From a virus (Duplodnaviria > Heunggongvirae > Uroviricota > Caudoviricetes): a stretch of 64,000 bases of DNA. The stretch spans positions 188,732 to 252,731 of the IMG/VR virus record IMGVR_UViG_3300037512_000782. One strand, written 5' to 3'. Positions 6,748 to 46,375 of this stretch are shown one piece after another (position 1 is the stretch's first letter; each line of letters starts with the position of its first letter). The position numbers and the translations under genes were made by a program. The notes under the pieces are model-generated. The model did not search any database. It saw nothing but the letters and a program-made list of their open reading frames with translations, and had not been told where the DNA came from.

Positions 6748-6819
6748 AACAGTTACCGTGATTGTTTGAATTCAGTTTATCACTTGTCGAGTTAACGGTT
6801 ATTTACTATATTGGGCGGT

Positions 6820-16083: not shown

Positions 16084-16090
16084 TCGTGTA

Positions 16091-16155
16091 AAAACCTATA
16101 TTTGGGTCATTATGCGCAAAATAACCAGTTAAAAACCTATATTTGGTACATTATG
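16091..16155 (+). repeat. ~25-bp imperfect direct repeat x2 (AAAAACCTATATTTGG(G)TCATTATG / ...TACATTATG)
   Basis: Two copies separated by ~15 nt, upstream of the Thg1-like gene. Confidence 0.6.
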
Positions 16156-16363
16156 AGCAATATAGACAACATCAAGGAAACGAAGGCCCAGAGGGCCGCT
16201 AGGATTGCCGGGACTGGCAACGGTGCGACACTTCGCACCAGACTGGTTCTGGATAGGAAGAAATACTCACGGAAAATCAAGCATAAAGGACAATCCATCG
16301 CAAGCGCGATGGATTTCGCTTTTATAGTGGACAATTTTGTGGGTTATTGCTATATTGTCCATT

Positions 16364-17236
16364 ATGGAAAGAATAATATCAGATACAATGCCGTTAGGTG
16401 ATCGTATCAAGTCGTACGAACACCAGTTCACTGGCTACACTATTGACTCGTCACTACCATTTATAGCTCGTGTGGACGGTAAGGCGTTCCATACCTATAC
16501 AAAGCGTATGCGCAAGCCGTTCGACGAACGTTTCGTGAAGGCGATGCAAGAGACTGCAAAAAAGTTGACAGAAACGTTCGATCCGATTCTGTCCTATGTG
16601 CAGTCCGATGAAATCACGTTACTATTCAAGCCGACAGCGGAACCGTTCTTGAGTGGAAAGCTGTCGAAGATGAACAGCATCATCGCAGCGACGGCGACTT
16701 ACTGGTTCAATCAGTTAATAGACCCAGAGACGCCGACCGTTGGCATTCCTATTTTCGATTGCCGCGTGTTCAACGTCCCAGATGAATGGGAAGCCGTCAA
16801 CGCGCTTCGCTTCCGTTACCGTGACGCCGTGCGCAATGCGGTTAGCGCTGCCGCTCGATACAAGGTCGGCCACTCGAAGTGCAACGGACTGAATACCGAC
16901 GAAAAACTCAAGTTAATAGGCAGCGACTGGAAGGGCTATTCTGTAGCGGCTCGCTACGGTACTTTCTACCGTCGAGTCAATGTCGTGAAGCCAGTCGCAG
17001 TCGATCGCGCCGCGCTTCCACCAGAGGTGGCTGCGAAGATTCCAGAAACTTGCCTCCGCACGGAAATTCACGAATACTACGTGAACATTGAGCAAACGTG
17101 GAACACTAGCTTGCCATACAAGTCGGAACCAGTCCCAGCTCCGTTAAGCTGCCCAGTGAGCGGCATCGACCACATCAAAAATGCCACGGACGTTATCTTC
17201 CGTGGACAAAATGCGGTACTTGATTCAAACGTATAA
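16364..17236 (+). CDS. tRNA-His guanylyltransferase-like protein (Thg1/TLP family; 3'-5' nucleotide addition, tRNA 5'-end repair)
   Basis: IARVDGKAFHTYTKRMRKPFDERF matches the Thg1 VVRLDG+xFHxF core; SDEITLLFK matches the SDEYSFVF metal-binding motif. The start could be ATG 16364 or 16388. Promoter box TTGCTATATTGTCC at 16347-16360. Terminator 17240-17270. Confidence 0.8.
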   Translation: MERIISDTMPLGDRIKSYEHQFTGYTIDSSLPFIARVDGKAFHTYTKRMRKPFDERFVKAMQETAKKLTETFDPILSYVQSDEITLLFKPTAEPFLSGKLSKMNSIIAATATYWFNQLIDPETPTVGIPIFDCRVFNVPDEWEAVNALRFRYRDAVRNAVSAAARYKVGHSKCNGLNTDEKLKLIGSDWKGYSVAARYGTFYRRVNVVKPVAVDRAALPPEVAAKIPETCLRTEIHEYYVNIEQTWNTSLPYKSEPVPAPLSCPVSGIDHIKNATDVIFRGQNAVLDSNV

Positions 17237-17239
17237 TAA

Positions 17240-17270
17240 AAGAGGCGGAATATTCCGCCTCTTTATTATA
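17240..17270. terminator. bidirectional intrinsic terminator
   Basis: GAGGCGGAATATTCCGCCTC palindrome followed by TTTATTAT. Confidence 0.65.
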
Positions 17271-18915
17271 TAGTGTAGTGAGTATTGAACGTATTGTTTA
17301 AGATTTCTGGGTGGTGTGCTCTGAGGTATTTGTATAGTCCGCTGCAATGCGCCTTAAAGATGGATACCGTTTCATATTTTTTTGTTTCGTCGATCATTTG
17401 CGGTACTGTCCAATAGTAATACGTATGTCGAACTACTTTGTTGATTGGTAGATACTTATCGAGTAAATCTTTTCGATTTGCCCATACATACCTAAATAAC
17501 GCATGACAGTGTTTTTCTAAATCACTGCGATATTGAAATTTTGTAATCTCAGCAATGATTTTCGTGTCTGACCAACGACAGTATTTACTAGGTCGTTTCG
17601 GTAGATGGTTTTTATAATACGACTTCAATAAGTCATTACAATGTCGACGGGCGTAATAATATAGACTAGGTTCGTTTTTATGCAACAAGCTTTGTGTCTT
17701 ATATTTCTTAAAGTGCTTCAAGAATAATTCATTATCCCATGTTTCATATTTCAGGTGCTTGCCGCGTTGTGGCGAAGGCGGTAAATACTTATCAAAATAG
17801 TCCATGTGATATTTCAATAAATATTTGTGTAATCCGGCATGCCGCTTTTGAAATGCGTTACGTTTTGTATATTTGGTCAAAACGTCAGCAATTTGCTGCT
17901 CCGTCCATTTATCGAATTTTGAGTTGATCTTCGGTAAATATTGATCAAGTAATTCAGGGAATCGCCTTTTGATATTTATATAAAGTTTTCCATTTTTCCG
18001 ACAAAAGGTTGCACGTCGTTTATATTTTTTGAGCTCCTTTATGATACGGTCTTTTGACCATCCATTGTATCCACGATTTTTATATGGAAACTGGTTATTT
18101 AGAAGTTCTGGTTTTTCGTGTAGCACGTATTTATAAATACCGTTTTTATGACGAGCGAATTCCGCTCGTGTTTTATACTTGCTCATGATACCAACGATGT
18201 CGGCATCCGACAGTTTCGTTAGATCATGAATAATTTTCAGTGGAAATACTGTATTAAGGAGTTCTTGCTTATTTTCAAGTAAATATGTATAGTATCGAGA
18301 TCCAGTTTTTGCAAGTCGTTGACGAGTCTTATACTTTGTTTTTAATAGCTTGGTATGTTCCTCATCAGTCATATTCTCGTAGTCGGCGTGTGACGACGGG
18401 ATGATATCATCGAGTAAGTGCAGTCGATTGGCTTTGCATAAATGTCCATATAGCGAACTATGGTTGTCCGAAAATTCAGACCGAGAATCACATGGGATTT
18501 CTTTAAGCCGTTTTCTAATCAAACGTCGAATTTGCCCATCAGTTTTATTTTTATATATGAATTCAGCAAATCCTCCTAGTTCGCCGCCCTTGGTCTTGTT
18601 AAGACACACAACATTATCCATCGATCGATATCGGCTAATTTCTGATTTTTCATAAGCAGCAGCCTCATCGGCTAGATAATTTTCGTGAGTGATTGTAAAA
18701 TACGGCAATACCTCAATATTATGGGACATTGCAAATTTTTTAATCGGTGAATAATGCTTATACTGTGTATGTTCAGAATTATGGTCGGTGAATCGTCGAT
18801 TCACATCTACAGTAATACCTACATACACATAAAGTATGCCATCTACATCGGTATACTTCCATTCATACGTACTGTACCTACGAAGGTCTTTTAGTCTTTT
18901 AGAATATGCTCGCAT
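17266..18915 (-). CDS. free-standing GIY-YIG homing endonuclease with C-terminal tandem-repeat DNA-binding array
   Basis: N-terminal ILYVYVGITVDVNRRFTDHNSEH...N..GG is GIY-YIG-like. At least 7 tandem ~40-aa repeats follow, of form (D/E)xxIxxxxKYKTRxEFxKHxxGxYKYxLxxxPELLxxxLP. AT-rich relative to flanking genes. Confidence 0.7.
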   Translation of the reverse strand: MRAYSKRLKDLRRYSTYEWKYTDVDGILYVYVGITVDVNRRFTDHNSEHTQYKHYSPIKKFAMSHNIEVLPYFTITHENYLADEAAAYEKSEISRYRSMDNVVCLNKTKGGELGGFAEFIYKNKTDGQIRRLIRKRLKEIPCDSRSEFSDNHSSLYGHLCKANRLHLLDDIIPSSHADYENMTDEEHTKLLKTKYKTRQRLAKTGSRYYTYLLENKQELLNTVFPLKIIHDLTKLSDADIVGIMSKYKTRAEFARHKNGIYKYVLHEKPELLNNQFPYKNRGYNGWSKDRIIKELKKYKRRATFCRKNGKLYINIKRRFPELLDQYLPKINSKFDKWTEQQIADVLTKYTKRNAFQKRHAGLHKYLLKYHMDYFDKYLPPSPQRGKHLKYETWDNELFLKHFKKYKTQSLLHKNEPSLYYYARRHCNDLLKSYYKNHLPKRPSKYCRWSDTKIIAEITKFQYRSDLEKHCHALFRYVWANRKDLLDKYLPINKVVRHTYYYWTVPQMIDETKKYETVSIFKAHCSGLYKYLRAHHPEILNNTFNTHYTI

Positions 18916-18955
18916 GGCCCTAATTATAGTATTATTTTAGGGCGCTGTCAATTCC

Positions 18956-19942
18956 TTATTGTTTTCGACATAATATACGCTTGATACGTTCGATGAATTT
19001 ATCGAACCATGTCAGATGGACTTGTTCCTCGGCTGGTTCGCTGGATTCGACTTCGGCGACGTAAGGGTCGCCGTTTTCGTTTTCCTTGACGACAAATTCA
19101 CGATGGACGACGTCGGTCTCCGGCTGTGGATCTTTCACGGCTGGCTCTGGGTCTTCTGCTGGCTTCTCTGGTTCTGGCTCCGCAGCGACTGTCTCGACTA
19201 CCTTGTTCATATCGTCGAGCGTATCCTTTATCTGCAGAGTGAATTCCGGCGGTATGTCGTACTTGTCCTTGCGGACATTCGAGTGACAGAAGATTCCCTT
19301 GTACGCAACCGCTTCATCTGCAGTATCGAATACGTCTCCGATCATTTCCTTGAAGGTCAGCGGAATGCCGTGCTTCTCGGACAGATACTTGAGCAAGTGC
19401 GCGACAGCCTTCTTCTGGATTTCCGTCATCTTCGCATAGTAGCAATAGCCACGGTACGAAATGAAGTCGACGTTGGCCGGATCCTTCGTGTAGAGGTTGC
19501 CGTATGCGTCGATGTAGTTGCCGTTCTGTTCCTTGTCCTTGAGTGGGCCGTAGTTAGAGATCTCTATGCCGATTGACTGCTTGGACATGACGGCATTTCC
19601 GCCGATCGCCGTAGAACCGAGGTGATACGACCAGAAGGCGTCATCGAACAGTCTGTAGATGTGTCCGCTGCGGTCTACGACGTAGGGCACGGACATGTGG
19701 TTGTTCTCCTTGGTAAGTGACGCGACGTCGCCAGTAATCACGCCTACGGTGAAATGTAGGCATATCTGCGTCTTTACCGTGCGTGTCTGGTAGAAGTAGG
19801 TCTTGAAACCGGGAGAAATGGGGATGATGCTGAAACCGTCGCCGATATCGATCGGGTTTCCAGCGGTGAACTTCTTGCCGGACGAATCCGTCAAGGTATT
19901 GGCAAACTTGGCCTCACGGCTAGCGATTGTTTCTGGAGTCAT
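18956..19942 (-). CDS. N-acetylmuramoyl-L-alanine amidase (Amidase_2/PGRP, T7-lysozyme-like) endolysin
   Basis: ICLHFTVG...VPYVVDRSGHIYRL matches the Amidase_2 zinc-binding core. The C-terminal half has a Pro/Glu linker (PEPEKPAEDPEPAVKDPQPE) followed by an extra domain. Confidence 0.75.
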   Translation of the reverse strand: MTPETIASREAKFANTLTDSSGKKFTAGNPIDIGDGFSIIPISPGFKTYFYQTRTVKTQICLHFTVGVITGDVASLTKENNHMSVPYVVDRSGHIYRLFDDAFWSYHLGSTAIGGNAVMSKQSIGIEISNYGPLKDKEQNGNYIDAYGNLYTKDPANVDFISYRGYCYYAKMTEIQKKAVAHLLKYLSEKHGIPLTFKEMIGDVFDTADEAVAYKGIFCHSNVRKDKYDIPPEFTLQIKDTLDDMNKVVETVAAEPEPEKPAEDPEPAVKDPQPETDVVHREFVVKENENGDPYVAEVESSEPAEEQVHLTWFDKFIERIKRILCRKQ

Positions 19943-19994
19943 GTCGAGCCTCCTTTTATAGCCGTTTATAAAATCTTTTACTATATTGGTTGTT

Positions 19995-21185
19995 ATGAAA
20001 TACCTTAAAAATTACGACTTTATATTTGTCGGCGCTGGTCTCACCAACGCCACCATCGCAGAAACCATTGCAACATACCGTGGCAATTTTGACCGAAAGA
20101 TCAAGATGCTCGTCATCGACAAGCGTCCCCATATCGGCGGAAACTGTTACACCGAAACCAAGAACGGTATCGACGTACACAAGTACGGTGCGCATATCTT
20201 CCACACGTCTGACGACTTCGTACATGAATATATCAGCGATTTCGGCGAATGGGTTCCGTTCATCAACCAGCCGATTGCTGTATTCACGCAGCCGGACGGT
20301 ACGAAGCGCATGTACAACATGCCGTTCAACATGAATACCTTCGTGCAGCTGTTCCCCGGACTCACTACGCCAGCCGAAGTCAAGGCGGCCATCCAGAAGG
20401 AAATCGACGAGGCTGGTATCAAGGAACCGAAGAACCTTGCCGAACAAGCTATCTCCATGGTCGGTACGACAATCTTCAATACGCTCGTCAAGGGCTATAC
20501 GGAGAAGCAGTGGGGCCGTAAGTGCGAAGACCTTCCAGCCAGCATCATCAAGCGTCTCCCAGTGCGTTTCACGTTCGACAACAACTACTTCAATGACAAG
20601 TACCAGATGATGCCAGCGCATGGCTATACGAAAGTCATCGAGAACATGTTCAAGCATGCTGGCGAAATCGATGGTGCCCGTGTAGACATCATGCTCAACA
20701 CGTCCTACACGCAGTTGCAAGTTCTGGGTATCAAGGCCAAGCAAGTATTTTATTCTGGCGGCATCGACGAGTTCTATGACTACAAGCTCGGTGCGCTCAA
20801 GTACCGTTCCGTCAAGTTCAAGGAAAAGAAGTTCAAGACGGACAACGTGCAAGGATGCCCGGTCTGCAACTATACGTCGACAGACGTGCCGTACACTCGC
20901 TCTATCGAGCACAAGTGGTTCTGTCCGCACGACGACGCAAAGGGTTCTATCGTGAGCTACGAATACTCGTCCGAATGGAAGAAGGGCATGGAACCGTACT
21001 ATCCGGTCAATGACCAAGCAAACCACGACTTGTACGAGCGTTATAGGAAGTTGCACGAGGAAGAGCAAGCTACCGCGAAGACGAAGGTGACGTTCGTTGG
21101 ACGCCTCGGTCTGTATAGCTACATGGATATGGACGACTGTATCATGTCTGCACGGACTGCGGCCTTCTTGAGCATGCAAGAATAA
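19995..21185 (+). CDS. glf: UDP-galactopyranose mutase
   Basis: N-terminal FAD-binding YDFIFVGAG...KMLVIDKRPHIGGNCYTE and HKYGAHIFHT are diagnostic for UGM. Track ORF starts at TTG 19986; the ATG is 19995. Promoter box TTTTACTATATTGG lies just upstream. Confidence 0.9.
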   Translation: MKYLKNYDFIFVGAGLTNATIAETIATYRGNFDRKIKMLVIDKRPHIGGNCYTETKNGIDVHKYGAHIFHTSDDFVHEYISDFGEWVPFINQPIAVFTQPDGTKRMYNMPFNMNTFVQLFPGLTTPAEVKAAIQKEIDEAGIKEPKNLAEQAISMVGTTIFNTLVKGYTEKQWGRKCEDLPASIIKRLPVRFTFDNNYFNDKYQMMPAHGYTKVIENMFKHAGEIDGARVDIMLNTSYTQLQVLGIKAKQVFYSGGIDEFYDYKLGALKYRSVKFKEKKFKTDNVQGCPVCNYTSTDVPYTRSIEHKWFCPHDDAKGSIVSYEYSSEWKKGMEPYYPVNDQANHDLYERYRKLHEEEQATAKTKVTFVGRLGLYSYMDMDDCIMSARTAAFLSMQE

Positions 21186-21219
21186 TATATAAACTGCATA
21201 TACCAAACTGAGAGTGTAT

Positions 21220-22557
21220 ATGCAGTTTTTCGATTATGACAACGACTTGGTTGCGTTCAATACCTTGATGGAAGACATCGAGGATCCGACCCCGTTGGTA
21301 GAAGACGATGACGAAGTCGTTATCCGACTGGAAGCTGACGAAGGTGGCGACGCGAACCAATTCAGCGGCGCTATGGTCGCAAATGCGGTATCTAACGCCG
21401 TAATCAACAACGCAGAAATACGTACAAAGGTATTTATGTCGGCATACTGGCATACTAATGCCGAGCCGTTCGAATTCGCCGACATAGACGGTCGCAAAAT
21501 CATCAACGATCCGTCCCTCAATGCAATTATCGAAGAACGCGACGACGGTACGGTTGCCGTCAATTTCTCTCGTTTGGTCTACAAGAAGACTCCGGCTTCC
21601 TTTATCAACTATCTACAAGGCGTCGAGGACTGGTCTGACTTGCCGCACAAGCAAATCAGCCCATTTGCAAAGGCGCTCAATGCCGCTGTTACTTCGTTCT
21701 TGACAGTCGTCAAGAAATACTTCAAGGACAAGAACACCGCTGCCAATACGTTCGACAAGCCAGAGAAGGAAGAACCGAAGCAAGACGAGCATCAGAAGGC
21801 TCCGCCGACCGAGGAAGAAAAGAATGAACAGCCGCAGAATCAAGAGCAGCAAGAGCCGCAGAAGCAACAGCAGCAAGAACCTCAGAAGGAACCGCCGCCG
21901 CAAGACGAAGAAGCTAACACGCCCGACGATAACGGAGAAGTGGATCAGCGTCAGCTCTATTCTTCTATCTTGAAGGACTTCCGCGACAATTACCAGCAAG
22001 AACTTGAAGCCGATTGCGCCGATAACAAAGACAATATTGATAACGAAGGTCGTCAAGCGATTGCCGACCAGTATTACGACGCGCTGATGGAACCGTACAA
22101 CGACAAGGCCGACGACGACACGAAGGCTCGTGTGATGAAGGTCGTCAAGCACACCGTCGTAAAGAACACGACGGATCCGAACGCAGCAAACAACAATGCG
22201 AACACATCCGACAATCCGGATGACGACAACATGGATTGGAGCGGCGACACTGGCAATAAGGACGATGGCGACGACGATCTCGACGACGACGATGATGACG
22301 ATGACGAGAAGAAGAAAAAGACGTCGACCAAGGCTCCAGCGAAGGACAAGGGATACGGCAACTGGTTCAAGAACACCATGCAGAACTGGGGCGACGAAGG
22401 TGTGGTCAACAAGAAGCTATACCAGCACCCAGTATTGAAGGGCCCATCCGCAGCCAAGGAAGCGAGCCGTCAAGCTCGTGAAGCGAAGGACGCCGAGCTG
22501 AAAAAGAAATATCCGAACATGGGTCAATTCCGTAGGAATATGAATAACTGGAAATAG
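21220..22557 (+). CDS. highly acidic low-complexity protein (poly-D/E and Q/P/E repeats)
   Basis: Contains EEPKQDEHQKAPPTEEEKNEQPQNQEQQEPQKQQQQEPQKEPPPQDEE and DDDLDDDDDDDDEKKKK. Track ORF begins at GTG 21214; the ATG is 21220. Confidence 0.55.
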   Translation: MQFFDYDNDLVAFNTLMEDIEDPTPLVEDDDEVVIRLEADEGGDANQFSGAMVANAVSNAVINNAEIRTKVFMSAYWHTNAEPFEFADIDGRKIINDPSLNAIIEERDDGTVAVNFSRLVYKKTPASFINYLQGVEDWSDLPHKQISPFAKALNAAVTSFLTVVKKYFKDKNTAANTFDKPEKEEPKQDEHQKAPPTEEEKNEQPQNQEQQEPQKQQQQEPQKEPPPQDEEANTPDDNGEVDQRQLYSSILKDFRDNYQQELEADCADNKDNIDNEGRQAIADQYYDALMEPYNDKADDDTKARVMKVVKHTVVKNTTDPNAANNNANTSDNPDDDNMDWSGDTGNKDDGDDDLDDDDDDDDEKKKKTSTKAPAKDKGYGNWFKNTMQNWGDEGVVNKKLYQHPVLKGPSAAKEASRQAREAKDAELKKKYPNMGQFRRNMNNWK

Positions 22558-22565
22558 GGGATCTT

Positions 22566-22946
22566 ATGATTCAGAACTGGAAAATGAACGCTTTACATGA
22601 TGTCGCTACTAGCTTGACAGCCCACACTGGATTGAAGACCCAGCCGAAGGGCGACGACGCAGTCGATATCACCATCAACGATATGCGTCTAGGTACATTG
22701 ACGGCGGATAAAAGCGATCCGGCCTTGTTCATGTACACCTCAGCCGACGGCTATGACGTGACTGGAACCTACGACGACATCGAAGGTGCCATCAAAAAAG
22801 ACCTCGACAACCAAGTCGAGTTCGTGGAGGTCACACCGGATTTTTTTCCTCCGGGAACCACCTTTGAATCAGTAGTCAAGGACAAAGTAAAGACTCCGCA
22901 TCTGTTGGAAGCGATACTAAAATCCTACAAGAATTACAAGCAATAA
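22566..22946 (+). CDS. hypothetical protein
   Basis: 126-aa ORF, followed by bidirectional terminator 22948-22985. Confidence 0.5.
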   Translation: MIQNWKMNALHDVATSLTAHTGLKTQPKGDDAVDITINDMRLGTLTADKSDPALFMYTSADGYDVTGTYDDIEGAIKKDLDNQVEFVEVTPDFFPPGTTFESVVKDKVKTPHLLEAILKSYKNYKQ

Positions 22947-22947
22947 A

Positions 22948-22985
22948 AAGAAAGGCTGGTCAAACGACCAGCCTTCTTATTCTAT
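22948..22985. terminator. bidirectional intrinsic terminator
   Basis: GGCTGGTC-aaac-GACCAGCC followed by TTCTTATTC. Confidence 0.6.
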
Positions 22986-23001
22986 CTCAAACAATCAATG
23001 A

Positions 23002-23592
23002 CTAGGCAGCAGCCTTGCGGATGATCGTGAAGCCGCAGCGTTCCATGACGAGGATTGCAGCAGCCTGTGCGCCCGGTGTAGCGGCACAAGCGTATTCCAC
23101 GATTTCGATCGGCGTGTCCTTGAACATTGCACGGAGAATCATTGCGTTGGAAATGACGCAAATGTCGGTGCAAGTTCCGACAAGGCGAATGCGCTTGATG
23201 CGTTCCTTGCCGAGCTTTGCGAGCTCTTCCTGGCTCTTGAGGGAGCCGTCCGCATTGAAGGCATCGTCGCCGAGGAAGTACTTCGCCCAGCCGAGGTAGC
23301 CGAACGTCGGCTTCTCGATACGAGTAGCGTAAGCGTCGTCGAGCGCTTGCTGGATGGATTCTTCGAACTTCCAGCCTTCCGTGCCCTTGATGCAGTGTTC
23401 CGGAAGAACGCCTTCGAGGGTCTGCTTGAAGTCTGCGCCGTGGGTGTCCATCGTGTAGAACACGTAGCCCTTCCATTCACGGATTTCTACGATGACTGCA
23501 CCGATGATTGCCTTGGCGTCGTCGTTTGCAAGAGAACCGTCGATGAAGTCCTTCTGCATGTCGATAACGATGAGGTATTCTTTTGGATTCAT
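23002..23592 (-). CDS. pncA: isochorismatase-family cysteine hydrolase, probable nicotinamidase
   Basis: LIVIDMQKDF (catalytic Asp), a lysine region and VGTCTDICV (catalytic Cys) give the D-K-C triad of PncA/isochorismatase. Start trimmed to MNPKEYL at 23592; the track ORF extends to 23754. Confidence 0.7.
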   Translation of the reverse strand: MNPKEYLIVIDMQKDFIDGSLANDDAKAIIGAVIVEIREWKGYVFYTMDTHGADFKQTLEGVLPEHCIKGTEGWKFEESIQQALDDAYATRIEKPTFGYLGWAKYFLGDDAFNADGSLKSQEELAKLGKERIKRIRLVGTCTDICVISNAMILRAMFKDTPIEIVEYACAATPGAQAAAILVMERCGFTIIRKAAA

Positions 23593-23605
23593 GATTTTGT
23601 CCTTG

Positions 23606-24802
23606 TTAAAGAGTTTGACGGAGCTGGATCGCCTTGGCAATGAGCTCACGGTGATGGAAAGCGAGAGGAATTTCGTCGAGCTTGTCGATCGGATACCACA
23701 TGGCGTCCTTTGCGTCGTCTTGTGCTTCCGGATCGGCTGGCAAGATTCCTTCACGGTTGAAGTCGAACATCATGCCGATGTCGTAGCCCCAGTAGTCCTT
23801 GTGGACATCGCAGCGAGGATCCTTCGGCTTGAATACGCCGACTTGATGCACTTGCGACGTGCCGATGGTAAAGCCAGTTTCTTCCTTGACTTCACGGACA
23901 CCAGCTTCCTCGCAAGTTTCCTTCGGATTGGCGAAGCCTCCCGGCAAGCACCAGTAATCGTGGTACGGAGCCTTCAAGCGCTTCACCAAGAGGATACGGT
24001 CGTTGTGGAAGATGGCCGAAGTCACGGTGACGGAAGGACGAGGGAAGCGGAACGGATCGTAGTTGGCTACGAGTTCGTCCTCAACATCCTTGTATTCCTT
24101 CGGTTCGGACTGTCCGTACAACTTGTTGCGGCGGATATACGACATCACTACCGGAGACACTTGGTCACAGAAGCACAGCGGATCGAAATTCATCATAAGG
24201 CGAGCCTTGGTAGAACTCGTCTTCGGAATGATCCAGTCGACGTATTCCAAGCGTTCTTGGCTGCTGCGCATCTGCTTGTAAGTTTCATCCGAGATGGTGC
24301 CGAGTCCTTTGGCAGAGTCAAGTGTTTCGATGAAGGCGGTACGACGGACAATCAAGAAGTTGACGTTCTTGAGAATCCAGTCGCTGTTCACCCACTGCTT
24401 TGTAAGCAAAGAAATCCATTCGTCGGAACCGAGAACCAGCATGAAGGTCGCATCGGCCATGCTCGTCTCCTTGCGGAGATTCTGCAGAGCTTCAGCGGTG
24501 CGGCTGACTTCGTCGATGATCTTGACTCGGTGGAAGATTTCGGACGGTTCGCCTTGATTGTAGGCAGCCGGAGAATCCGAATTATCGGAGTACAGACTGT
24601 GAAGCGAATTGACCGTATGGACAATCATGGCCATGCGGTCTTCGCACTCAACCGAGTACTTCTTGGTATCGTTGTCGCTTACCAAGATGTACAAGAGGGC
24701 TTCTGGTTCCTTCTTGAGACGGTTGAGGAGTTCGGTAATAATGGCGGTGTGCGCAGTCGTTACCGGATCGAATGCGCCGCCGTAGATGTACACCTTCTTC
24801 AT
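23606..24802 (-). CDS. nadM: bifunctional nicotinamide/nicotinate mononucleotide adenylyltransferase + Nudix hydrolase (NadM-Nudix type)
   Basis: N-terminal GGAFDPVTTAH matches the (H/T)xGH nucleotidyltransferase motif; LVLGSDEW also present. C-terminal Nudix box GGFANPKETCEEAGVREVKEETG fits Gx5Ex7REUxEExGU. Confidence 0.85.
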   Translation of the reverse strand: MKKVYIYGGAFDPVTTAHTAIITELLNRLKKEPEALLYILVSDNDTKKYSVECEDRMAMIVHTVNSLHSLYSDNSDSPAAYNQGEPSEIFHRVKIIDEVSRTAEALQNLRKETSMADATFMLVLGSDEWISLLTKQWVNSDWILKNVNFLIVRRTAFIETLDSAKGLGTISDETYKQMRSSQERLEYVDWIIPKTSSTKARLMMNFDPLCFCDQVSPVVMSYIRRNKLYGQSEPKEYKDVEDELVANYDPFRFPRPSVTVTSAIFHNDRILLVKRLKAPYHDYWCLPGGFANPKETCEEAGVREVKEETGFTIGTSQVHQVGVFKPKDPRCDVHKDYWGYDIGMMFDFNREGILPADPEAQDDAKDAMWYPIDKLDEIPLAFHHRELIAKAIQLRQTL

Positions 24803-26151
24803 TAGTCGAGTGCGTCCTTGTTTTCTGGAATGGGTTCGTACTGGTACGCATCCTTCGCACGTTCGATCACCTTCGGATCGGGGCAGTTGACCTTGCCCGG
24901 AGAGTCGGAGAGCTTCACGGCGTACTTGCCGTTGGACATGACGAGCTTCATGATCATGCGAAGCGCGTCACGCTTGATGCCTCCCTTGAAGCGGAGCACC
25001 TTGCAAGCGAGGAAGCCGCCGATACCGAACGCAACATTGATACGAGTGTGGAAGCGTTCAGCGATATCGAGAGACTGGTCGCAGTTGAGGCTGTCAGACC
25101 AGCAGCCAACCTTGCTCTTGGAATTGATTGCGTTCTTGAGGTAGTGTGCGATAAGCATTTCGCCCCAGACATACGGGTCGCCGGAATCGTGGCGGCAGCC
25201 GTCGAACAGCTTTGCGTAATACTTGTCGAAGTCGCGCAAGAATGCGTTGAAGCCGAAGTTGTCGGAAAGCGCGATACCGAGGTCGCCACGGAATTCGTCA
25301 GACCAGTCTTCGAGAACGCGCTGCTGCACGAGTTCAAGCGGAATGTCCTTGATGCCCTGATACAAGGCATACATTTCGTGGGCGAAAGTACCGATGGCCT
25401 TGCAGCCGAGCTTGATTGCCAAGTATACGTTGGACGTGCCAACGAAGGCCGGGCAGAAGTCGAGCATGGTCTTGACCATGTATTCGTTCCATTCGTCAGA
25501 TACGGAACGACGGACGCCGAAGTCGGAAATGGTGAACTTGACACCACGGCGGAGTGCTGCGTTCCACTTGGCGATAGATTCGTTGAGGGCCTTCTTGGAT
25601 TCTTCCCAGTCGATTTCGAGGTCGTCGAAGAAGAGGTTCTGGATGATCTTCAAGACGTAGATTTCAAACCAAGTGACTTGGATGGCTGGGCCGTCAGCCC
25701 AGATGTGGAGACCGCCGTTGCGAGAAGGGTCGTAGTCGACGTGGATGTACTTGCGCTTGAGCTGGAAGTCGGCAAGCCATTCGATGAAGTCGTCTGACAG
25801 CCACGGCATGACACGGCGGATGCCTTCGAGTTCCCATTCAGTAAACTTGAGTGTGCAAAGGTGGTCGAGTTCGCGATTGATTTCGTCATAGAACGGAGTA
25901 AGGTCGACGCCTTCGGAACGGAGCTTGAATTCCCAGTAAGCTCGTTCGTTCGGATGCTTGTGGAACACGCACTGGCACATACCGAACTTGTACGTATCGG
26001 TCTGCGTTAGGTTGTTCACAAACCACTTGTCTTTGTTCTTGCGCTGATACTGCTTGTTTACAGTGACGCCGACTGCACGGCGCTTGCGAACAACGGTGCG
26101 ACAAGGCTGCTTCGCCCTCGCGATTGTTTTTTCTGTGACTTTAACTGCCAT
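24802..26151 (-). CDS. pncB: nicotinate phosphoribosyltransferase
   Basis: Collinear matches to PncB: TDTYKFGMCQCVFH, ISDFGVRRSVS, FVGTSNVYLAIKLGCKAIGTFAHE, RHDSGDPYVWGE, AFGIGGFLAC, KLSDSPGK. Has a basic ~45-aa N-terminal extension. 1-nt stop/start overlap with nadM. Confidence 0.9.
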   Translation of the reverse strand: MAVKVTEKTIARAKQPCRTVVRKRRAVGVTVNKQYQRKNKDKWFVNNLTQTDTYKFGMCQCVFHKHPNERAYWEFKLRSEGVDLTPFYDEINRELDHLCTLKFTEWELEGIRRVMPWLSDDFIEWLADFQLKRKYIHVDYDPSRNGGLHIWADGPAIQVTWFEIYVLKIIQNLFFDDLEIDWEESKKALNESIAKWNAALRRGVKFTISDFGVRRSVSDEWNEYMVKTMLDFCPAFVGTSNVYLAIKLGCKAIGTFAHEMYALYQGIKDIPLELVQQRVLEDWSDEFRGDLGIALSDNFGFNAFLRDFDKYYAKLFDGCRHDSGDPYVWGEMLIAHYLKNAINSKSKVGCWSDSLNCDQSLDIAERFHTRINVAFGIGGFLACKVLRFKGGIKRDALRMIMKLVMSNGKYAVKLSDSPGKVNCPDPKVIERAKDAYQYEPIPENKDALD

Positions 26152-26279
26152 CGGAATAGTCCTTGTTAAAGATGAATGTTTCGCGGAAATATAGCAAATG
26201 AGTGTGAGTCTGGCAAGCCCAAGCAGAAATAGTTAAAAAGTAAGCTATGTTGTTCGAAGGCTTTATTATATTTGGCGGC

Positions 26280-26477
26280 ATGTTGTGGAATGTATTGCTA
26301 ATATTGCTGATTTTGACGATAATATCGGTGTATGGGATTGCCATCGTCAAGCTGGTTTGCTATATTAAGACCCAGAAACGGGTCGACCGTCTGGAACACA
26401 CAGTCGGCGACCTATCACAAAAACTCACCGAAATTATGAAGGACACTAATGAGAGCAACGACGGAAACCTACAATAA
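26280..26477 (+). CDS. small membrane protein (alternative start 26247)
   Basis: Product is MLWNVLLILLILTIISVYGIAIVKLVCY..., a TM helix. A TATATTTG box ends 5 nt before ATG 26280. Confidence 0.4.
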   Translation: MLWNVLLILLILTIISVYGIAIVKLVCYIKTQKRVDRLEHTVGDLSQKLTEIMKDTNESNDGNLQ

Positions 26478-27231
26478 TGTGCATAGCATCTTGACCGCAC
26501 CAGATGTGGTGGATCGACTTGAGCGTGAACGGAGCAATCCTCTGTTCGGTTTCATCGACCAGTACTTGGCCGGATGTGAGCACGTCAACTATCACTACGA
26601 AGGTGATGTGTGGGTTCATACGAAGCTCGTCATTACGAATATCTTCAAGGGCGAACATGACTACTTGGATGTCGCTGCGGCGTTGCTTCACGACATCGGC
26701 AAGAAGGATGCGCTTGCGAAGAACAACGGCAAGAACATGGCCGGACATGAATTTATTGGTCGTCCGCTTGCCGAAGAAGTTTTGAACAAATTCGACTTCA
26801 GCCAGAACGAGAAGGATGTCGTTCTGTGGATGGTAGAGAACCATACGAAGGCGAACGGCTTGCCGAAGGCGAAGATGAAGTTCGCTTGCTGGACATTCGT
26901 GTCTCATCCGTTGTTTTATCGCGCAGTACGTCTTGCAGTAGCCGATTCCAACGGCACTATCGGCGCTGATGGTAAGCCAGTCATGGACTACATGGCGGCA
27001 ATCGAAGCGAACAAGATTGTCAATCTCTGCTTGCACAATCCGATGCCCGGCCATCTCGTGACATGGAATGACATGATTGCCTACCCAGGTGTCGAAGAAA
27101 TTACTGACGCGAACAAGAAGTTTGAGCTTTACGAACTCTGCCACAAGATCCAGATCAACGGTGGCGGTAACAAGAAGGATTCAATTCTCAGAGCTGCGCT
27201 TAGGTGCATGAAGGACAAAGGATCGATATGA
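26449..27231 (+). CDS. HD-domain phosphohydrolase
   Basis: WVHTKLV ... LLHDIGK ... D gives the H..HD..D signature of the HD superfamily. Confidence 0.7.
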   Translation: MRATTETYNNVHSILTAPDVVDRLERERSNPLFGFIDQYLAGCEHVNYHYEGDVWVHTKLVITNIFKGEHDYLDVAAALLHDIGKKDALAKNNGKNMAGHEFIGRPLAEEVLNKFDFSQNEKDVVLWMVENHTKANGLPKAKMKFACWTFVSHPLFYRAVRLAVADSNGTIGADGKPVMDYMAAIEANKIVNLCLHNPMPGHLVTWNDMIAYPGVEEITDANKKFELYELCHKIQINGGGNKKDSILRAALRCMKDKGSI

Positions 27232-27830
27232 AACAGAAACAAGTAATAGACTTGCCGCACATTGAATGCCCGGTGTACGGCATCGCACACAAATACACGC
27301 TGGATATCGCTGGCGAAAAGGGCTCCAAGGAACTGAAGTATCGTTTGTACGGAACATTCTATTCCTACAGCGAACCGACCGAGATTACTGTGGTTGGCAT
27401 CTATGTATCTTCCGAAAGTCCTAACAAGATTATGTTCGGTTACATCGATCCGAAGACGAACCAGCTCAAGGTCTCCATGGCTAACGGCATCCGTGAAATT
27501 CCGAAGGAAGACAAGTCGATTCTCTCCGAAGCGAGCGAAGAAGACTATCTTGTCGGCCTTCATCACGCGGCCTCGCTGTTCATCCGCTACCGCAACAAGA
27601 AGACCTTCATCGTCAAGGCGAACAAGCTGAACCGCACCATTCGTGGCAATGCGCACTACCGCATCTACGATGTCAAGAACAATGATGGCAAGTTCGAGTT
27701 TGTCGTCGCCAACGAAAACAAGCTTGACGCACGATTCACCGTCATTGCCGAAAGCATCACGCACGGAACTTGGCATAAAATCCCCGGTACGCTCTGTCCG
27801 GTTCCTGGGGTTGATCCAGACGAGCGATAA
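27228..27830 (+). CDS. hypothetical protein
   Basis: In-frame ATG 27228 overlaps the HD gene stop (ATGA). Track ORF starts at GTG 27204. Strong terminator 27838-27875 follows. Confidence 0.5.
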   Translation: MKQKQVIDLPHIECPVYGIAHKYTLDIAGEKGSKELKYRLYGTFYSYSEPTEITVVGIYVSSESPNKIMFGYIDPKTNQLKVSMANGIREIPKEDKSILSEASEEDYLVGLHHAASLFIRYRNKKTFIVKANKLNRTIRGNAHYRIYDVKNNDGKFEFVVANENKLDARFTVIAESITHGTWHKIPGTLCPVPGVDPDER

Positions 27831-27837
27831 GCCGAAA

Positions 27838-27875
27838 CAAAACGAGCTGGCCGATCGGCCAGCTTTTTTATTTCC
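27838..27875 (+). terminator. intrinsic terminator
   Basis: AGCTGGCCGATCGGCCAGCT, a perfect 20-nt palindrome, followed by TTTTTTATTT. Confidence 0.75.
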
Positions 27876-28098
27876 TTCTACTTAAACTGTGTAGAATCCA
27901 TCTATGTATGGCTTCGAGGACGTTGCCCATCAGTGGAGTCATGCCATGCATCATCCTCGTCTTGACGGCGATCCATCGTTTCTTCATGAGGCTATAAAAA
28001 TGGTGGCATGCGCCTATGGCAAACGCTATGTATATGGCCATAAAAATTTTTTCACGCATATTTCACAAATTATATCAAAAACCTCTTGACGCTGATGA

Positions 28099-28117
28099 GT
28101 GTTATTACTATATTTCG
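28099..28117 (+). promoter_or_regulatory. host-like promoter box GTTATTACTATATTTCGTG upstream of cca
   Basis: TATATTTC ends ~5 nt before ATG 28122. Confidence 0.5.
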
Positions 28118-28121
28118 TGGC

Positions 28122-29378
28122 ATGAAGATTGATTTGAGCAAATACCACGAATTGGAGCTGAGTGACGGCCTCGCATTGGCGAAGGCGATCACCGAGCTCG
28201 GAGACGGCAAGGCGGAAGCTTATGTCGTCGGCGGATGCGTACGTGACCTTGTTCGTCATCAGCTAGGGCAGACTAGCACGGTAGATATCCATGATGTCGA
28301 TATCGCCACGTCGCTGTCTCTCGAAGAACTGAAGGCTAACTTCCAAACGGTCAGCAACAACGGCGAAAAACACGGAACGCTGCTGGTATTCTGGAACACA
28401 CAATACTTTGAAGTGACGCACTTCCGCGTCGACGGCGACTATAGCGACGGTCGTCATCCGGACGACGTATCCTTCACGAGTTCTTTCGAAGAAGATACGG
28501 CTCGCCGTGACTTTACTATCAACGCGCTCGGCATGAACTGGGACGGCGAAATCATCGACTTCCATGGCGGCGTTGAAGATATCAAGAAGAGAACCATCCG
28601 CGCTGTCGGTAATCCTGACGAGCGTTTCAAGGAAGATGCTCTCCGCATGATTCGTGCGGTGCGCTTCGCGGTAAACTTCGATTACATTATCGATAATAAC
28701 ACGTCTAGCGCAATCAGCAAGAACGCCGAGTTGGTTGAACATGTATCGAACGAACGTATTCGTTCCGAGTTCTTGAAGCTGTCCTCTTACGACAACATGC
28801 CCGATTTTATCGACCGTTTGATCTGGGTCGGCTTGATTAAGCATATCAGAGCGTTCGTCGGCATGGACTGGTACGAAGTCAAGTGCAACCTTATTGAGTG
28901 CGATGACTTGCTGACTGCAGACAACCTATTCCCCGCTATCTGCTACACGGCTAATGACGAAAGCAACTTGGAAGCATTCGTTCCTACTCGTGAGGAACGC
29001 AAGATGTGGAACTGGCTCCGTTCTTACAAGAATGTGTACGCATGGGATCCGGATTCCAAGCTGTATTGGACTTCGCTGGTGGATTTCGTGTCTGGTCAGT
29101 TCGAGCTGCTGCTTGCGCTCAATGCTGATCTGTATTGTGATCGTGCGTGGTTGCCCAAGCTTCCAGCAGCAAGCTATCTGTTGCAGAATCCGCCCGACAT
29201 GAAGGCGATTTCTAAGAGGGTCGCCGATATGGGCATTCCTCAAGGCAAGGCTTTTGGTGAAAAGGTGAAAGAACTCACTGAAGCCGAATACGCCAAGATG
29301 GCGGCTGTATTCCCAAACACAGTCTCGCTGACGATGGGCAACAGTACGCTTGTCTATAAAATTGAATCTGTCAAATAA
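28122..29378 (+). CDS. cca: tRNA nucleotidyltransferase (CCA-adding enzyme), class II
   Basis: AYVVGGCVRDLV (GGxVRD), DVDIATS (DxD catalytic motif) and RRDFTINAL (RRD motif). Track start 28086 is TTG. ATG 28122 sits 5 nt after a TATATTTC box. Confidence 0.85.
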   Translation: MKIDLSKYHELELSDGLALAKAITELGDGKAEAYVVGGCVRDLVRHQLGQTSTVDIHDVDIATSLSLEELKANFQTVSNNGEKHGTLLVFWNTQYFEVTHFRVDGDYSDGRHPDDVSFTSSFEEDTARRDFTINALGMNWDGEIIDFHGGVEDIKKRTIRAVGNPDERFKEDALRMIRAVRFAVNFDYIIDNNTSSAISKNAELVEHVSNERIRSEFLKLSSYDNMPDFIDRLIWVGLIKHIRAFVGMDWYEVKCNLIECDDLLTADNLFPAICYTANDESNLEAFVPTREERKMWNWLRSYKNVYAWDPDSKLYWTSLVDFVSGQFELLLALNADLYCDRAWLPKLPAASYLLQNPPDMKAISKRVADMGIPQGKAFGEKVKELTEAEYAKMAAVFPNTVSLTMGNSTLVYKIESVK

Positions 29379-29399
29379 CCAACAAAAAGGAACAACACA

Positions 29400-29972
29400 A
29401 TGGGTAAAACAATCATTCTCGGCGCGGTCGGCTTTATCGTCGTCGCAATCCTCACAGTAATCGCATCCATCTTCATGGTTCAGAACTATCAGAACCGTGC
29501 AATCCAGATGGAACAGCTGGTGGAAAAGTCGCAGTCCAACCTCAACGCGGAATACAACCGCCGCGCTGGCCTTCTCGTCAACTTGGCGGAAGCCGTGATG
29601 AGCTATGACGAACACGAAGCCAAGGTTCTCGTGGAACTCTCGAAGGCTCGTACTCCAGACGGCGGCAAGGGAAACGTGAACGCTTCCGCTTACATCCAAG
29701 GTGTCGTGGAACGCTATCCGCAGCTCAGATCGATCGAGAATTACGATAGGTATATGACGGAACTTGCGATGACTGAAAATCGCATTGCGTCACATCGTAA
29801 TGATTACAATACCATGGTTGGGAACTATATCGCCTATGTGCGCGGATTCCCGGCTCGTTTCTTGCTCTCTATTCTCGGATATCAGCCGAAGAATTACGAA
29901 TACTTGCAGTTCGAAAAGGCTCCGGTAGACGCACCGACTGGCCTCTTGAAGAAGAAGGCTGATAAGGAATAG
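29400..29972 (+). CDS. LemA family membrane protein
   Basis: N-terminal TM helix, then QNYQNRAIQMEQ and EYNRRAGLLVNLAEAV, matching the LemA signature QxxRRADLIPNLV. Confidence 0.75.
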   Translation: MGKTIILGAVGFIVVAILTVIASIFMVQNYQNRAIQMEQLVEKSQSNLNAEYNRRAGLLVNLAEAVMSYDEHEAKVLVELSKARTPDGGKGNVNASAYIQGVVERYPQLRSIENYDRYMTELAMTENRIASHRNDYNTMVGNYIAYVRGFPARFLLSILGYQPKNYEYLQFEKAPVDAPTGLLKKKADKE

Positions 29973-29973
29973 C

Positions 29974-30765
29974 ATGAGCTCTCGCACACTGATCGACGGT
30001 GGCACGTGGGATCTCACTGTCCGTGAGCTGTTCTTGTCGATCGTTGGCTTACTGCTTGCCATAATCATTGGCTGCATTATCGCCAACAGCATCGCGCAAG
30101 CCGAAGACGAGTATAACGTGAAGTTCTATCACGCTATACAAGTGTCCGACTCCACCCAGTTCAATTATGCCTTCAAGACCAACGCTGGCCACATGCTGGC
30201 GTACGGCACTGTCAGCGCTGTTGGGTTCGTTACCGACAACGGTATCGGAAACTACATGTCGTTGACTAGGGACTTGGAGGAATACCGTAAGCACCATCGC
30301 ACAGTCTGTTCTGGCGAAGGGAAGCACCGTCATTGCCATACGGAAACCTACTGGACATGGGATGTCATCAAGACTGAACGGTTCCATGTCGATCAAGTGG
30401 ACTTCCTCGGCAAGCGGTTCTACTACTCTCAGTTTCCTCAGCTTCCGTCTGAACGCTATGTCGGCACAGTACCGATTCCGTCCGGCGGATTCATTGAAGG
30501 ATTGTTTAAGAACAGACAGCGGTATGTGTATCACGGCAGACGTTTAACGTACACTGGTACGATGTACACGAATGCGGTCAACCACACGATCAACGACTCC
30601 AAGTGGGCTGACGGCATTACGCTTGACAGAGCTATCGACTTCTACATCCATGAACATGGAGTATTGATTTTCTGGATTATCTTCGGTGTCATTATCGTCG
30701 TGGCCATCATCTTCTTTGTGGCGGCTCCGAACGAATGGCTTAACGGTTCAGTAAGGGACTGGTAA
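29974..30765 (+). CDS. two-pass membrane protein with ~180-aa extracytoplasmic domain
   Basis: TM helix at the N-terminus (LFLSIVGLLLAIIIGCIIA) and at the C-terminus (VLIFWIIFGVIIVVAIIFFV). 2-nt gap from the LemA gene. Confidence 0.6.
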   Translation: MSSRTLIDGGTWDLTVRELFLSIVGLLLAIIIGCIIANSIAQAEDEYNVKFYHAIQVSDSTQFNYAFKTNAGHMLAYGTVSAVGFVTDNGIGNYMSLTRDLEEYRKHHRTVCSGEGKHRHCHTETYWTWDVIKTERFHVDQVDFLGKRFYYSQFPQLPSERYVGTVPIPSGGFIEGLFKNRQRYVYHGRRLTYTGTMYTNAVNHTINDSKWADGITLDRAIDFYIHEHGVLIFWIIFGVIIVVAIIFFVAAPNEWLNGSVRDW

Positions 30766-30766
30766 T

Positions 30767-31177
30767 ATGAACGTAAAAATTGTAAATGGACTTGACGGAA
30801 ACGGATCCGTCACAATTACGGACAGCAATGGCGATGTCATGGTGTCCTTGAAGGACTGCCCGGAATTTCCGGTGTCTGGCGACATCACGATGGAATCCGA
30901 CAATGTTCTTATCGTCGGTGGCCGCCGCATCGAATGCGGTAAGCGTATCGCCGGGATCAACATCTGCGGTAACATTAAGTCCGTCCAAAATCTTCCAAAC
31001 ATTGTCGTGAACGGAAATGTCAGCAACGTCAGTACGACGTCTGGTGACGTGACTGTCCACGGCGACGTAAATGGCTCGGTGTCCGCCGTTTCTGGCGATG
31101 TCGAAGTCAGAGGTAGCGTCGCTGGCTCGGTCAGTACCGTGTCTGGCGATGTAGACGTCAGAAACAATCAACAATAA
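30767..31177 (+). CDS. beta-helical repeat protein (bactofilin/polymer-forming-like)
   Basis: Repeated (V/I)xGDVxVxGxV units: VSGDITM, VHGDVNGSVSAVSGDVEVRGSVAGSVSTVSGDVDV. Confidence 0.55.
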   Translation: MNVKIVNGLDGNGSVTITDSNGDVMVSLKDCPEFPVSGDITMESDNVLIVGGRRIECGKRIAGINICGNIKSVQNLPNIVVNGNVSNVSTTSGDVTVHGDVNGSVSAVSGDVEVRGSVAGSVSTVSGDVDVRNNQQ

Positions 31178-31189
31178 AGGAAAGTAAAC

Positions 31190-32852: not shown

Positions 32853-32884
32853 CAAGGCCAGCCGAAAGGCTGGCCTTTCTGTTG
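32853..32884 (+). terminator. intrinsic terminator after flotillin operon
   Basis: AGGCCAGCC-gaaa-GGCTGGCCT followed by TTCTGTTG. Confidence 0.65.
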
Positions 32885-32917
32885 ACAGCAGTGAGTGTAT
32901 TTACTATATTTTGGCCG

Positions 32918-38414: not shown

Positions 38415-38417
38415 GTA

Positions 38418-45150: not shown

Positions 45151-45267
45151 GGTCGCTATACGGTGTCAGACTGGCACGGCGATGGCGGGACTGCTACGCA
45201 GTCCTATTTTTATTTTGTAAGCCGATGGGGCTTACGAAAACGCCATTCTCAAAAGGAGATACGAATT

Positions 45268-46257: not shown

Positions 46258-46307
46258 GAAAAGGGGCTTCGCCCCTTTTCTTTTTATTTTGTGCTGATCG
46301 ATCCAGT

Positions 46308-46361: not shown

Positions 46362-46375
46362 GAAAGGAGTTTAAT

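Follow-up and report, generated by a model that had tools for sequence, protein, structure and literature searches.

The 64,000-nucleotide stretch of DNA analyzed here (the window; positions 188,732 to 252,731 of the IMG/VR virus record IMGVR_UViG_3300037512_000782), which we treat as part of a roughly 343-kb uncultured jumbo-phage-like genome, encodes what we read, with a probability of about 0.5, as a tRNA acceptor-end maintenance and repair set that would keep tRNAs chargeable during infection. The set comprises a Thg1-like protein (TLP), a class II CCA-adding enzyme and a stand-alone HD-domain protein, encoded in three separately transcribed units (Table 1). We base this reading on the families to which the enzymes belong, on the preservation of their active-site residues, on the homology between the HD protein and the HD halves of CCA-adding enzymes, on the conserved linkage of the genes and on a shared promoter type. 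An earlier examination of the sequence (the original prediction) had named the three open reading frames (ORFs), all of which are intact at the positions given in Table 1, and had proposed that their products together reverse tRNA damage inflicted by host nucleases: The observation is confirmed by our analysis, and the interpretation is partly supported. Both the repair concept and the pairing of TLP and CCA genes have already been described for jumbo phages, and the unfused HD protein is a minor architectural variant.

The Thg1-like protein

The first enzyme matches the Pfam family Thg1 (PF04446) over profile positions 2-130 of 130 with an E-value of 3.8e-29 and 101.7 bits (cut-off 29.2), phrog_4717 'tRNA-His guanylyltransferase' with an E-value of 1.9e-58 and, as its nearest solved structure, the B. 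thuringiensis Thg1-like protein BtTLP (PDB 4kgk, E 2.7e-24), which bears out the family assignment of the original prediction; the two motifs quoted there, IARVDGKAFH and SDEITLLF, are both present. Used as a query, the protein scores 89 bits against BtTLP and 32-36 bits against eukaryotic Thg1 structures. The metal-site carboxylates of BtTLP, D30, D75 and E76 (D29, D76 and E77 in the human enzyme), correspond in the alignment to D38, D82 and E83 of the phage protein, whose E19, R36, H43, K51 and S81 align with the BtTLP residues for NTP binding and activation, E12, R28, H35, K43 and S74 (functional roles according to PMC3701042). Across an alignment of 16 homologues E19, R36, D38 and the S81-D82-E83 triplet are invariant.

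At the position of the VDTHINNLYNT sequence of yeast-type Thg1 the phage protein has RDAVRNAVSAA, that is, the HINNLYN segment is replaced (by RNAVSAA) as in bacterial TLPs. This segment is linked to the specificity of Thg1. By its sequence, then, the phage protein can be classed as a bacterial-type TLP rather than a eukaryotic-type Thg1. It shares with BtTLP the carboxylates, the NTP-binding residues and the TLP-type sequence at the HINNLYN position, but it differs from it in several respects: The alignment is limited to residues 11-180, the window protein is longer (290 aa against 245 aa), it carries a clade-specific insertion near the C-terminus, and it is phage-encoded. To the TLPs of cultured phages its identity is only 27-43% at the protein level. 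Bacterial TLPs refill 5'-truncated tRNAs in vitro with the 3' strand as template (PMC3061083, PMC3701042), and BtTLP has been described as mainly a 5'-end repair enzyme (PMC3701042); one passage of PMC5041481 describes TLPs as being of unknown function.

The CCA-adding enzyme

The second enzyme combines a PolyA_pol head domain (PF01743; E 7.7e-32, 110.7 bits, cut-off 23) with a PolyA_pol_RNAbd neck domain (PF12627; E 2.4e-09, 37.3 bits, cut-off 22), and its nearest structures are the CCA-adding enzymes 6ibp (E 1.6e-50) and 1miv (E 6.8e-45) from Planococcus and Geobacillus. It scores 157-175 bits against solved CCA-adding enzymes, 77-79 bits (3e-21) against poly(A) polymerase and 57.5 bits against the A-adding model; with 242.6 bits it stays under the cut-off of 290 of the NCBIfam equivalog PRK13299 because its C-terminal third is divergent. 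Motifs A-E were all located (GGCVRD at residue 37, DVD at 58, RRDFTINA at 128, DFHGGVED at 146, EDALR at 171 and ERIRSE at 211) and align with those of 6ibp and 1miv, and between motifs A and B the loop can be aligned to that of CCA-adding enzymes with no gap. No HD motif was found anywhere in the 418 residues. A class II CCA-adding enzyme without an HD domain had been predicted and is what the sequence indicates; the accompanying remark that bacterial CCA enzymes usually carry such a domain was too broad, as the nearest relatives are of the Bacillus/Planococcus type, and the match of the protein to PRK13299, the model for this type, contains no HD domain.

The stand-alone HD protein and its partner

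The third protein exceeds the cut-off of the Pfam HD family (27.8 bits, cut-off 22), so that all three Pfam profiles that the original prediction had put forward for searching (Thg1, PolyA_pol and HD) match above cut-off; the catalytic carboxylates of TLP and the CCA motifs likewise hold on alignment. Its residues H57, H81-D82 and D166 as well as H49, H100 and H132 are invariant in 40 homologues, CCA-HD fusions included, and its top NCBIfam match covers positions 208-334 of the multifunctional CCA addition/repair protein. There is no PolyA_pol domain in its 260 residues, that is, HD domain and nucleotidyltransferase head do not reside in one polypeptide: The protein is a homologue of the HD half and not a member of the fused CCA-HD family. 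Its own clade comprises 13 clusters with 34-93% identity. Outside this clade the relatives are mostly the C-terminal halves of proteins of 410-450 aa with the order PolyA_pol, RNA-binding neck, HD and tail, joined by a few HD-kinase fusions.

The homology to the C-terminal half of CCA-HD enzymes extends beyond the HD core and takes in almost the full length of the protein. A profile built from the clade finds PDB 3wfo, the structure of a class II tRNA nucleotidyltransferase that has been solved alone and with tRNA, with an E-value of 5.8e-14 from the HD motif through to the C-terminal tail, and for the AF2 model of the protein (pLDDT 96) the top Foldseek matches are 3wfo, 3wfp and 3wfr with TM-scores of 0.53-0.63 on query length. 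Searched against 1.84 billion representatives, the profile matched 13,137 proteins, and the nearest non-clade proteins among those checked were PolyA_pol+HD fusions; since 58 of the 150 best matches measure at most 330 aa, some of them clearly fragments, free-standing HD halves are not rare. In cultured phages HD matches occur in 39 records, and the 30 listed ones all lie inside genes annotated as tRNA nucleotidyltransferase or near-equivalents, namely a putative polyA polymerase, one duplicate record named 'hypothetical protein' and one unannotated metagenomic record. Taken together, these comparisons support the placement of the HD protein in the HD lineage of CCA addition/repair enzymes and not in a nucleotide-pool HD family, and we predict that it is a tRNA 3'-end phosphoesterase. 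As a passage in PMC6961547 (citing Yakunin 2004) has it, the HD domain of the E. coli CCA enzyme removes a 2',3'-cyclic phosphate and thereby allows the CCA end to be rebuilt. With this E. coli-type CCA addition/repair protein (PRK10885; PDB 3wfo-3wfs) the window protein shares the sequence of HD domain plus tail, the predicted fold and all metal-binding residues; it differs in having neither nucleotidyltransferase head nor neck, and polymerase activity would be contributed in the window by a separate full-length enzyme of another subtype.

The HD gene is always followed by a gene for a 200-aa protein that is limited to this phage clade and in which 63 positions are invariant, an HH pair and the CPVPGVDP-ER motif at the C-terminus among them. 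This partner gave no family or fold match; structure prediction suggests an all-beta fold. The HD-domain protein had thus been recognized correctly, but its gene does not stand immediately upstream of the CCA gene as described: The partner gene, a strong terminator-like hairpin and a spacer of ~260 nt between this hairpin and the CCA gene intervene. An origin of the CCA and HD genes by division of one gene is ruled out, because the CCA enzyme is complete (418 aa against a model of 396 positions) and belongs to a different, HD-less Bacillus subtype with a C-terminal region of its own. Of the split CCA/HD arrangement that had been noted, the separateness of the two proteins therefore stands and the division of a CCA-HD gene does not, the HD protein matching a different type of CCA enzyme.

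Transcription units and promoters

The three units are delimited by promoter-like and terminator-like elements (Table 1). The hairpin upstream of the TLP gene is terminator-like and would close the preceding transcription unit, and the TLP gene is monocistronic because the next gene lies on the opposite strand. Among relatives of the locus, labelled L001-L007 and L014, the hairpin between the partner gene and the CCA gene has an equivalent in L005 (7257-7278), and the geometry of the TLP promoter is repeated in L002 (1292-1320), L003 (249-277) and L006 (762-790). This geometry, in which the -10 hexamer of a promoter-like TTGACA-N17-TATATT site ends 7 nt before an ATG, is found at six of the 17 strict sites in the window; with 1 in 64 sites expected by chance, this corresponds to a P of about 1.6e-7. 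A -10 hexamer so close to the start codon predicts leaderless or near-leaderless mRNAs, and the TLP and CCA genes are accordingly predicted from their upstream sequences to be expressed as such mRNAs from one promoter class. Public gene calls assign the CCA gene another start codon; the start at 28122 is backed by the promoter geometry and by the relatives, and the conserved geometry supports 16364 as well as 28122 over some of these calls.

Two further genes touch this subject. A sigma-70-family protein with regions 2 and 4 is encoded at 9466-10206 (+) and may relate to the conserved promoter class. At 2931-3938 (+) a DHH/DHHA1 phosphoesterase (RecJ/NrnA-like), which could degrade short RNAs or nucleotide signals, is preceded by a promoter-like site with the leaderless geometry seen at the TLP and CCA genes.

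Table 1. Coordinates and properties of the genes and putative regulatory elements in the window.
Feature	Position	Strand	Properties
Terminator-like hairpin	16292-16315	+	10-bp stem, 5 G-C pairs, T-rich tail; upstream of the TLP gene
Promoter-like site TGGACA-N17-TATATT	16328-16356	+	TG extension; -10 ends 7 nt before the TLP ATG
TLP gene	16364-17236	+	290 aa, bacterial-type Thg1-like protein; predicted templated 3'-5' RNA polymerase
NAD-salvage genes, Preiss-Handler type	23002-26151	-	Nicotinamidase, adenylyltransferase-Nudix fusion, PncB-type nicotinate phosphoribosyltransferase
Promoter-like site	26216-26188	-	Faces the NAD-salvage operon; back to back with the site at 26338-26366, 120 nt apart
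Promoter-like site TTGCCA-N17-TATATT	26338-26366	+	HD/200-aa unit; leader ~82 nt; conserved in L001-L007
HD phosphohydrolase gene	26449-27231	+	260 aa; homologue of the C-terminal half (HD plus tail) of HD-bearing class II CCA-adding enzymes
Gene for protein of unknown function	27228-27830	+	200 aa; ATG overlaps the HD stop codon (ATGA)
Bidirectional intrinsic-terminator-like hairpin	27844-27865		9-bp stem, 6 G-C pairs, then TTTTATTT; between the 200-aa and CCA genes
Promoter-like site TTGACG-N17-TATATT	28086-28114	+	-10 ends 7 nt before the CCA ATG; kept in L001-L007
CCA-adding enzyme gene	28122-29378	+	418 aa, class II, Bacillus/Planococcus type, without HD domain
Six sites with the 7-nt geometry	2895-2923, 6784-6812, 16328-16356, 28086-28114, 32882-32910	+	
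	18951-18923	-	

Conservation of the neighborhood

In relatives whose HD proteins are 93% to 53% identical to that of the window one gene order is kept: TLP, amidase, UDP-galactopyranose mutase (Glf), the NAD-salvage trio, HD, 200-aa partner, CCA and LemA. The more distant L014 (TLP identity 59%) is rearranged. Even so, its HD gene (45% identity, E 5e-72) overlaps the partner gene (33%, E 2e-36), and the pair is again next to the CCA gene, though encoded on the other strand; the TLP gene and an expanded NAD cluster are found within a distance of 10.8 kb. In the relatives as a whole, the TLP gene remains no more than about 10 kb away. A version of this locus in which a calcineurin-like phosphoesterase takes the place of a missing HD gene was considered and is ruled out: Direct comparison shows the HD and partner genes on the other strand. 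The conservation of the neighborhood, L014 included, is our strongest argument for a functional tie between the HD-partner pair and the CCA gene and for counting the TLP gene among the genes of one accessory region.

The position of the HD gene beside the NAD-salvage trio bears on a different explanation, according to which the HD protein and its partner serve the NAD-salvage cluster or the clearance of nucleotide signals and not tRNA ends, and proximity to the CCA gene merely echoes the evolutionary origin of the HD protein. Candidate substrates would then be NADP, 2'-phospho-nucleotides, 2',3'-cyclic nucleoside monophosphates (2',3'-cNMPs) or cyclic phosphates derived from ADP-ribose, and the HD domain of the E. 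coli CCA enzyme was reportedly found by Yakunin and co-workers in 2004 to hydrolyze NADP, 2'-AMP and 2',3'-cNMPs in vitro as well. This explanation, which we consider unlikely, would account for the divergent arrangement of the HD gene and the PncB operon with their back-to-back promoters, for the conservation of this adjacency and for the situation in L014, where the NAD cluster has gained NadE, Macro and calcineurin-like phosphoesterase genes and still stands beside the HD gene; it would not account for the retention of the whole tRNA nucleotidyltransferase body and tail beyond the HD core, nor for the persistence of the HD-partner pair next to the CCA gene despite the change of orientation. 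The NAD cluster, which is divergent from the HD gene and not shown to be part of the repair set, is linked to the HD, CCA and TLP genes in L002-L006 and L014. Its nicotinamidase is isochorismatase-like, and its PncB-type protein exceeds the NCBIfam cut-offs (393 against 379, and 327 against 270). To our knowledge the published phage NAD-reconstitution pathways use nicotinamide (Nampt) routes, and the PncB-type trio may represent a different route.

Distribution in phages and comparison with known systems

No cultured phage is a close relative of the one studied here: A near-identity DNA search with positions 16000-30000 of the window against 50,697 phage records gave a single, chance-sized match of 54 nt. 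An IMG/VR scan with the TLP protein as query returned no relative. Several window ORFs do match phage protein families, among them GP88, amidase, ArdC-like and RadC-like proteins, and a VWA protein of 740 aa shares ~30% identity with proteins of Ackermannviridae. At the level of protein families TLP genes occur in 162 and CCA genes in 417 of the 50,697 records, so a Thg1-like enzyme in a phage is rare, as the original prediction had said, yet routinely annotated. TLP and CCA genes are found together in jumbo phages of Caulobacter (13 and 13 records), in Lak phages (15 and 15), in the Vibrio D series and in others.

Every listed TLP-carrying record is large (88-550 kb, hence at least 88 kb). 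Many of the large phage groups with a TLP are rich in tRNA genes. Both observations would suit a housekeeping explanation, in which the three enzymes serve a large tRNA repertoire encoded elsewhere in the genome: The CCA enzyme would add CCA to phage tRNAs whose genes omit it, TLP would add G-1 to tRNA-His or fix 5' ends, and the HD protein would tidy 3' ends. That the enzymes are of the same kinds as cellular maturation enzymes and that no ligase or kinase partners were recognized in the window fits this picture as well. We regard it as possible, if on balance somewhat unlikely, in view of three points on the other side: The protein is a bacterial-type TLP with RNAVSAA in place of the HINNLYN motif of eukaryotic Thg1, its best solved relative, BtTLP, is described as mainly a 5'-end repair enzyme, and ARAGORN detected no tRNA gene, whether in the window, in a 10-kb downstream extension or in the related loci examined (13 related or extended loci), which is a weak argument, as these scans cover 74 kb of the ~343-kb genome. 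An Rfam scan of the window gave no matches.

The gene set as such is already annotated in other giant phages, and the same genes are present in the cultured phages Vibrio D181, Caulobacter CcrSC and Cronobacter GAP32. In CcrSC the TLP and CCA genes are 13 kb apart, and in D181 a TLP gene and a CCA-HD fusion gene share one 12-kb block with annotated phosphoesterase, polynucleotide kinase and RNA ligase genes, which makes it a fuller repair cluster; polynucleotide kinase and RNA ligase are the two activities of T4-type tRNA repair. For jumbo phages Iyer et al. 2021 proposed that CCA and Thg1 genes restore the 3' and 5' ends of tRNAs after attack by host RNases (PMC7824862). As this proposal precedes it, the idea put forward in the original prediction is a rediscovery. 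The window resembles CcrSC and D181 in the two enzyme families, the very large genome and a distance of a few kb between the genes, and it shares with D181 the same kind of HD domain. It differs in that the HD domain is separate and not fused to the CCA enzyme, in that the CCA enzyme is of the HD-less Bacillus type, in the coupling of the HD gene to that of the clade-specific 200-aa protein and, compared with D181, in that no neighboring polynucleotide kinase or RNA ligase was seen in the window. What is particular to this phage is the unfused HD half with its 200-aa partner.

Two further systems are comparable in function. In phage T4, Pnkp and Rnl1 counter the anticodon nuclease PrrC: This is likewise a phage-encoded answer to tRNA damage and follows the same end-healing logic, in which a 3' phosphate is removed and the RNA is then restored, but it addresses breaks in the anticodon loop with a kinase-phosphatase and a ligase, whereas the set in the window would act only at the acceptor end. 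The small alarmone hydrolases, which undo the pyrophosphorylation of the 3'-CCA end by toxSAS/CapRel toxins, are metal-dependent hydrolases that restore a blocked tRNA 3' end, as the HD protein would; they belong to the hydrolase branch of RelA-SpoT homologues, and the likeness is a functional analogy only, with no direct homology shown.

Proposed role in acceptor-end repair

For the proposed maintenance and repair set we envisage substrates, an order of action, a cooperation between the enzymes and a counter-defense purpose as follows. The HD protein, probably together with its translationally coupled 200-aa partner, would strip a blocking 2',3'-cyclic phosphate, phosphate or pyrophosphate from tRNA 3' ends, making use of the tRNA-binding scaffold of body and tail that is common to HD-type CCA enzymes. 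The HD-less Bacillus-type CCA enzyme would act next and rebuild the missing C, C and A, and TLP would fill in the 5' strand of the acceptor stem where nucleotides have been lost, with the 3' strand as template. Such an upkeep of the acceptor end in three steps is the simplest interpretation. The likeliest purpose would be to keep tRNAs chargeable where enzymes of the host or of competitors shorten or block their acceptor ends.

Which defenses such a set could counter depends on the breaks it could mend. The original prediction had listed anticodon nucleases and retron and PARIS-type effectors besides acceptor-end toxins. Retron and PARIS effectors are cutters of the anticodon loop. A Pfam scan of the window ORFs of at least 250 aa gave no match to an RNA ligase or polynucleotide kinase, and an acidic ORF at 21214-22557, scanned against PHROGs only, gave no match. 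Since no ligase or kinase was recognized in the window, anticodon-loop cuts would not be repairable by these genes alone; the list was therefore too wide, and of the proposed reversal of tRNA damage the part that concerns the acceptor end is what remains. The relevant defenses for this set are those acting at the 3' end: Cas12a3 cleaves the CCA tails of tRNAs, and its authors call viral counter-measures unknown, and toxSAS/CapRel toxins pyrophosphorylate the CCA end, a modification that some hydrolases reverse. That the HD protein may act on such ends is something we infer only. A more far-reaching version of the proposal, which we regard as doubtful, would make the HD 'half-CCA' and its partner a two-subunit deblocking enzyme for tRNA 3' ends that strips the groups left by tail-targeting immunity (toxSAS/CapRel, 3'-end nucleases) and hands the tRNA to the HD-less CCA enzyme, with TLP restoring the opposite strand; together with the NAD genes, these genes would form a conserved counter-defense island against abortive-infection effectors.

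Several observations weigh against a common repair function, beginning with the missing ligase and kinase. The TLP, HD/200-aa and CCA genes form three units with their own promoters and terminators, spread over 13 kb, and the genes between TLP and CCA (amidase, Glf, NAD salvage) are functionally unrelated. TLPs are carried by many phages of genera that are not among the ten commonest in the CCA search, for instance in 44 Bacillus phage records, which implies that TLP and CCA are not obligate partners. The divergence of the HD gene from the NAD-salvage operon makes another, nucleotide- or NAD-derived substrate class possible, the neighborhood is a general accessory region in which linkage may reflect a shared timing of expression rather than a shared pathway, and no experimental study of a phage Thg1-like enzyme was found in the literature searched. 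Carried further, the separate units and unrelated intervening genes would suit the view that there is no joint function at all, and that three accessory genes, each acquired on its own, happen to lie together in a variable region of early genes in a jumbo phage: This region gains and loses homing-endonuclease-like genes, and TLP and CCA differ in their nearest relatives and in their phage distribution. We think this improbable, because the genes are still found near each other in relatives with HD identity as low as 45% and TLP identity as low as 59%, even where the locus is rearranged, and because the co-occurrence recurs in the unrelated cultured phages of Caulobacter, the Lak group and the Vibrio D series.

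Neighboring genes

Directly after the TLP gene, at 17266-18915 (-), lies a gene for a GIY-YIG-like protein of 549 aa with many repeated modules of ~40 aa, which is present in the window and in L003 and absent at that site in L002 and L006; in L002 a NUMOD3-like gene is found between the PncB and HD genes. This variation looks like mobile homing-endonuclease traffic. The amidase between the TLP gene and the NAD cluster is an N-acetylmuramoyl-L-alanine amidase and is encoded together with Glf at 18956-21185; Glf is unusual for a phage and hints at surface-sugar modification. Directly 3' of the CCA gene, at 29400-32827 (+), LemA-like and flotillin/SPFH (FloT-like) membrane-organizing proteins are encoded, an arrangement kept in close relatives. 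An IS605 OrfB or Cas12f-like TnpB gene stands a few kb downstream of the CCA gene in L005 (13712-15112, -) and is absent from the window. Farther away, eight back-to-back genes for proteins of 146-186 aa, one of them YdjM-like, follow each other with overlapping stops and starts at 37974-41870 (-), where the GC content is the highest in the window (0.56), and a protein with ArdC-N and zincin metallopeptidase domains (anti-restriction-like) is followed by a RadC/JAB protein at 45163-46972 (+).

Conclusion

The TLP, CCA and HD genes stay together when the genome is rearranged, and they have a promoter type in common, which strengthens the case for a working set in this phage lineage. Within this set, the HD half-protein and its 200-aa partner are the candidates for an end-deblocking activity and thus the part that most deserves experiment.

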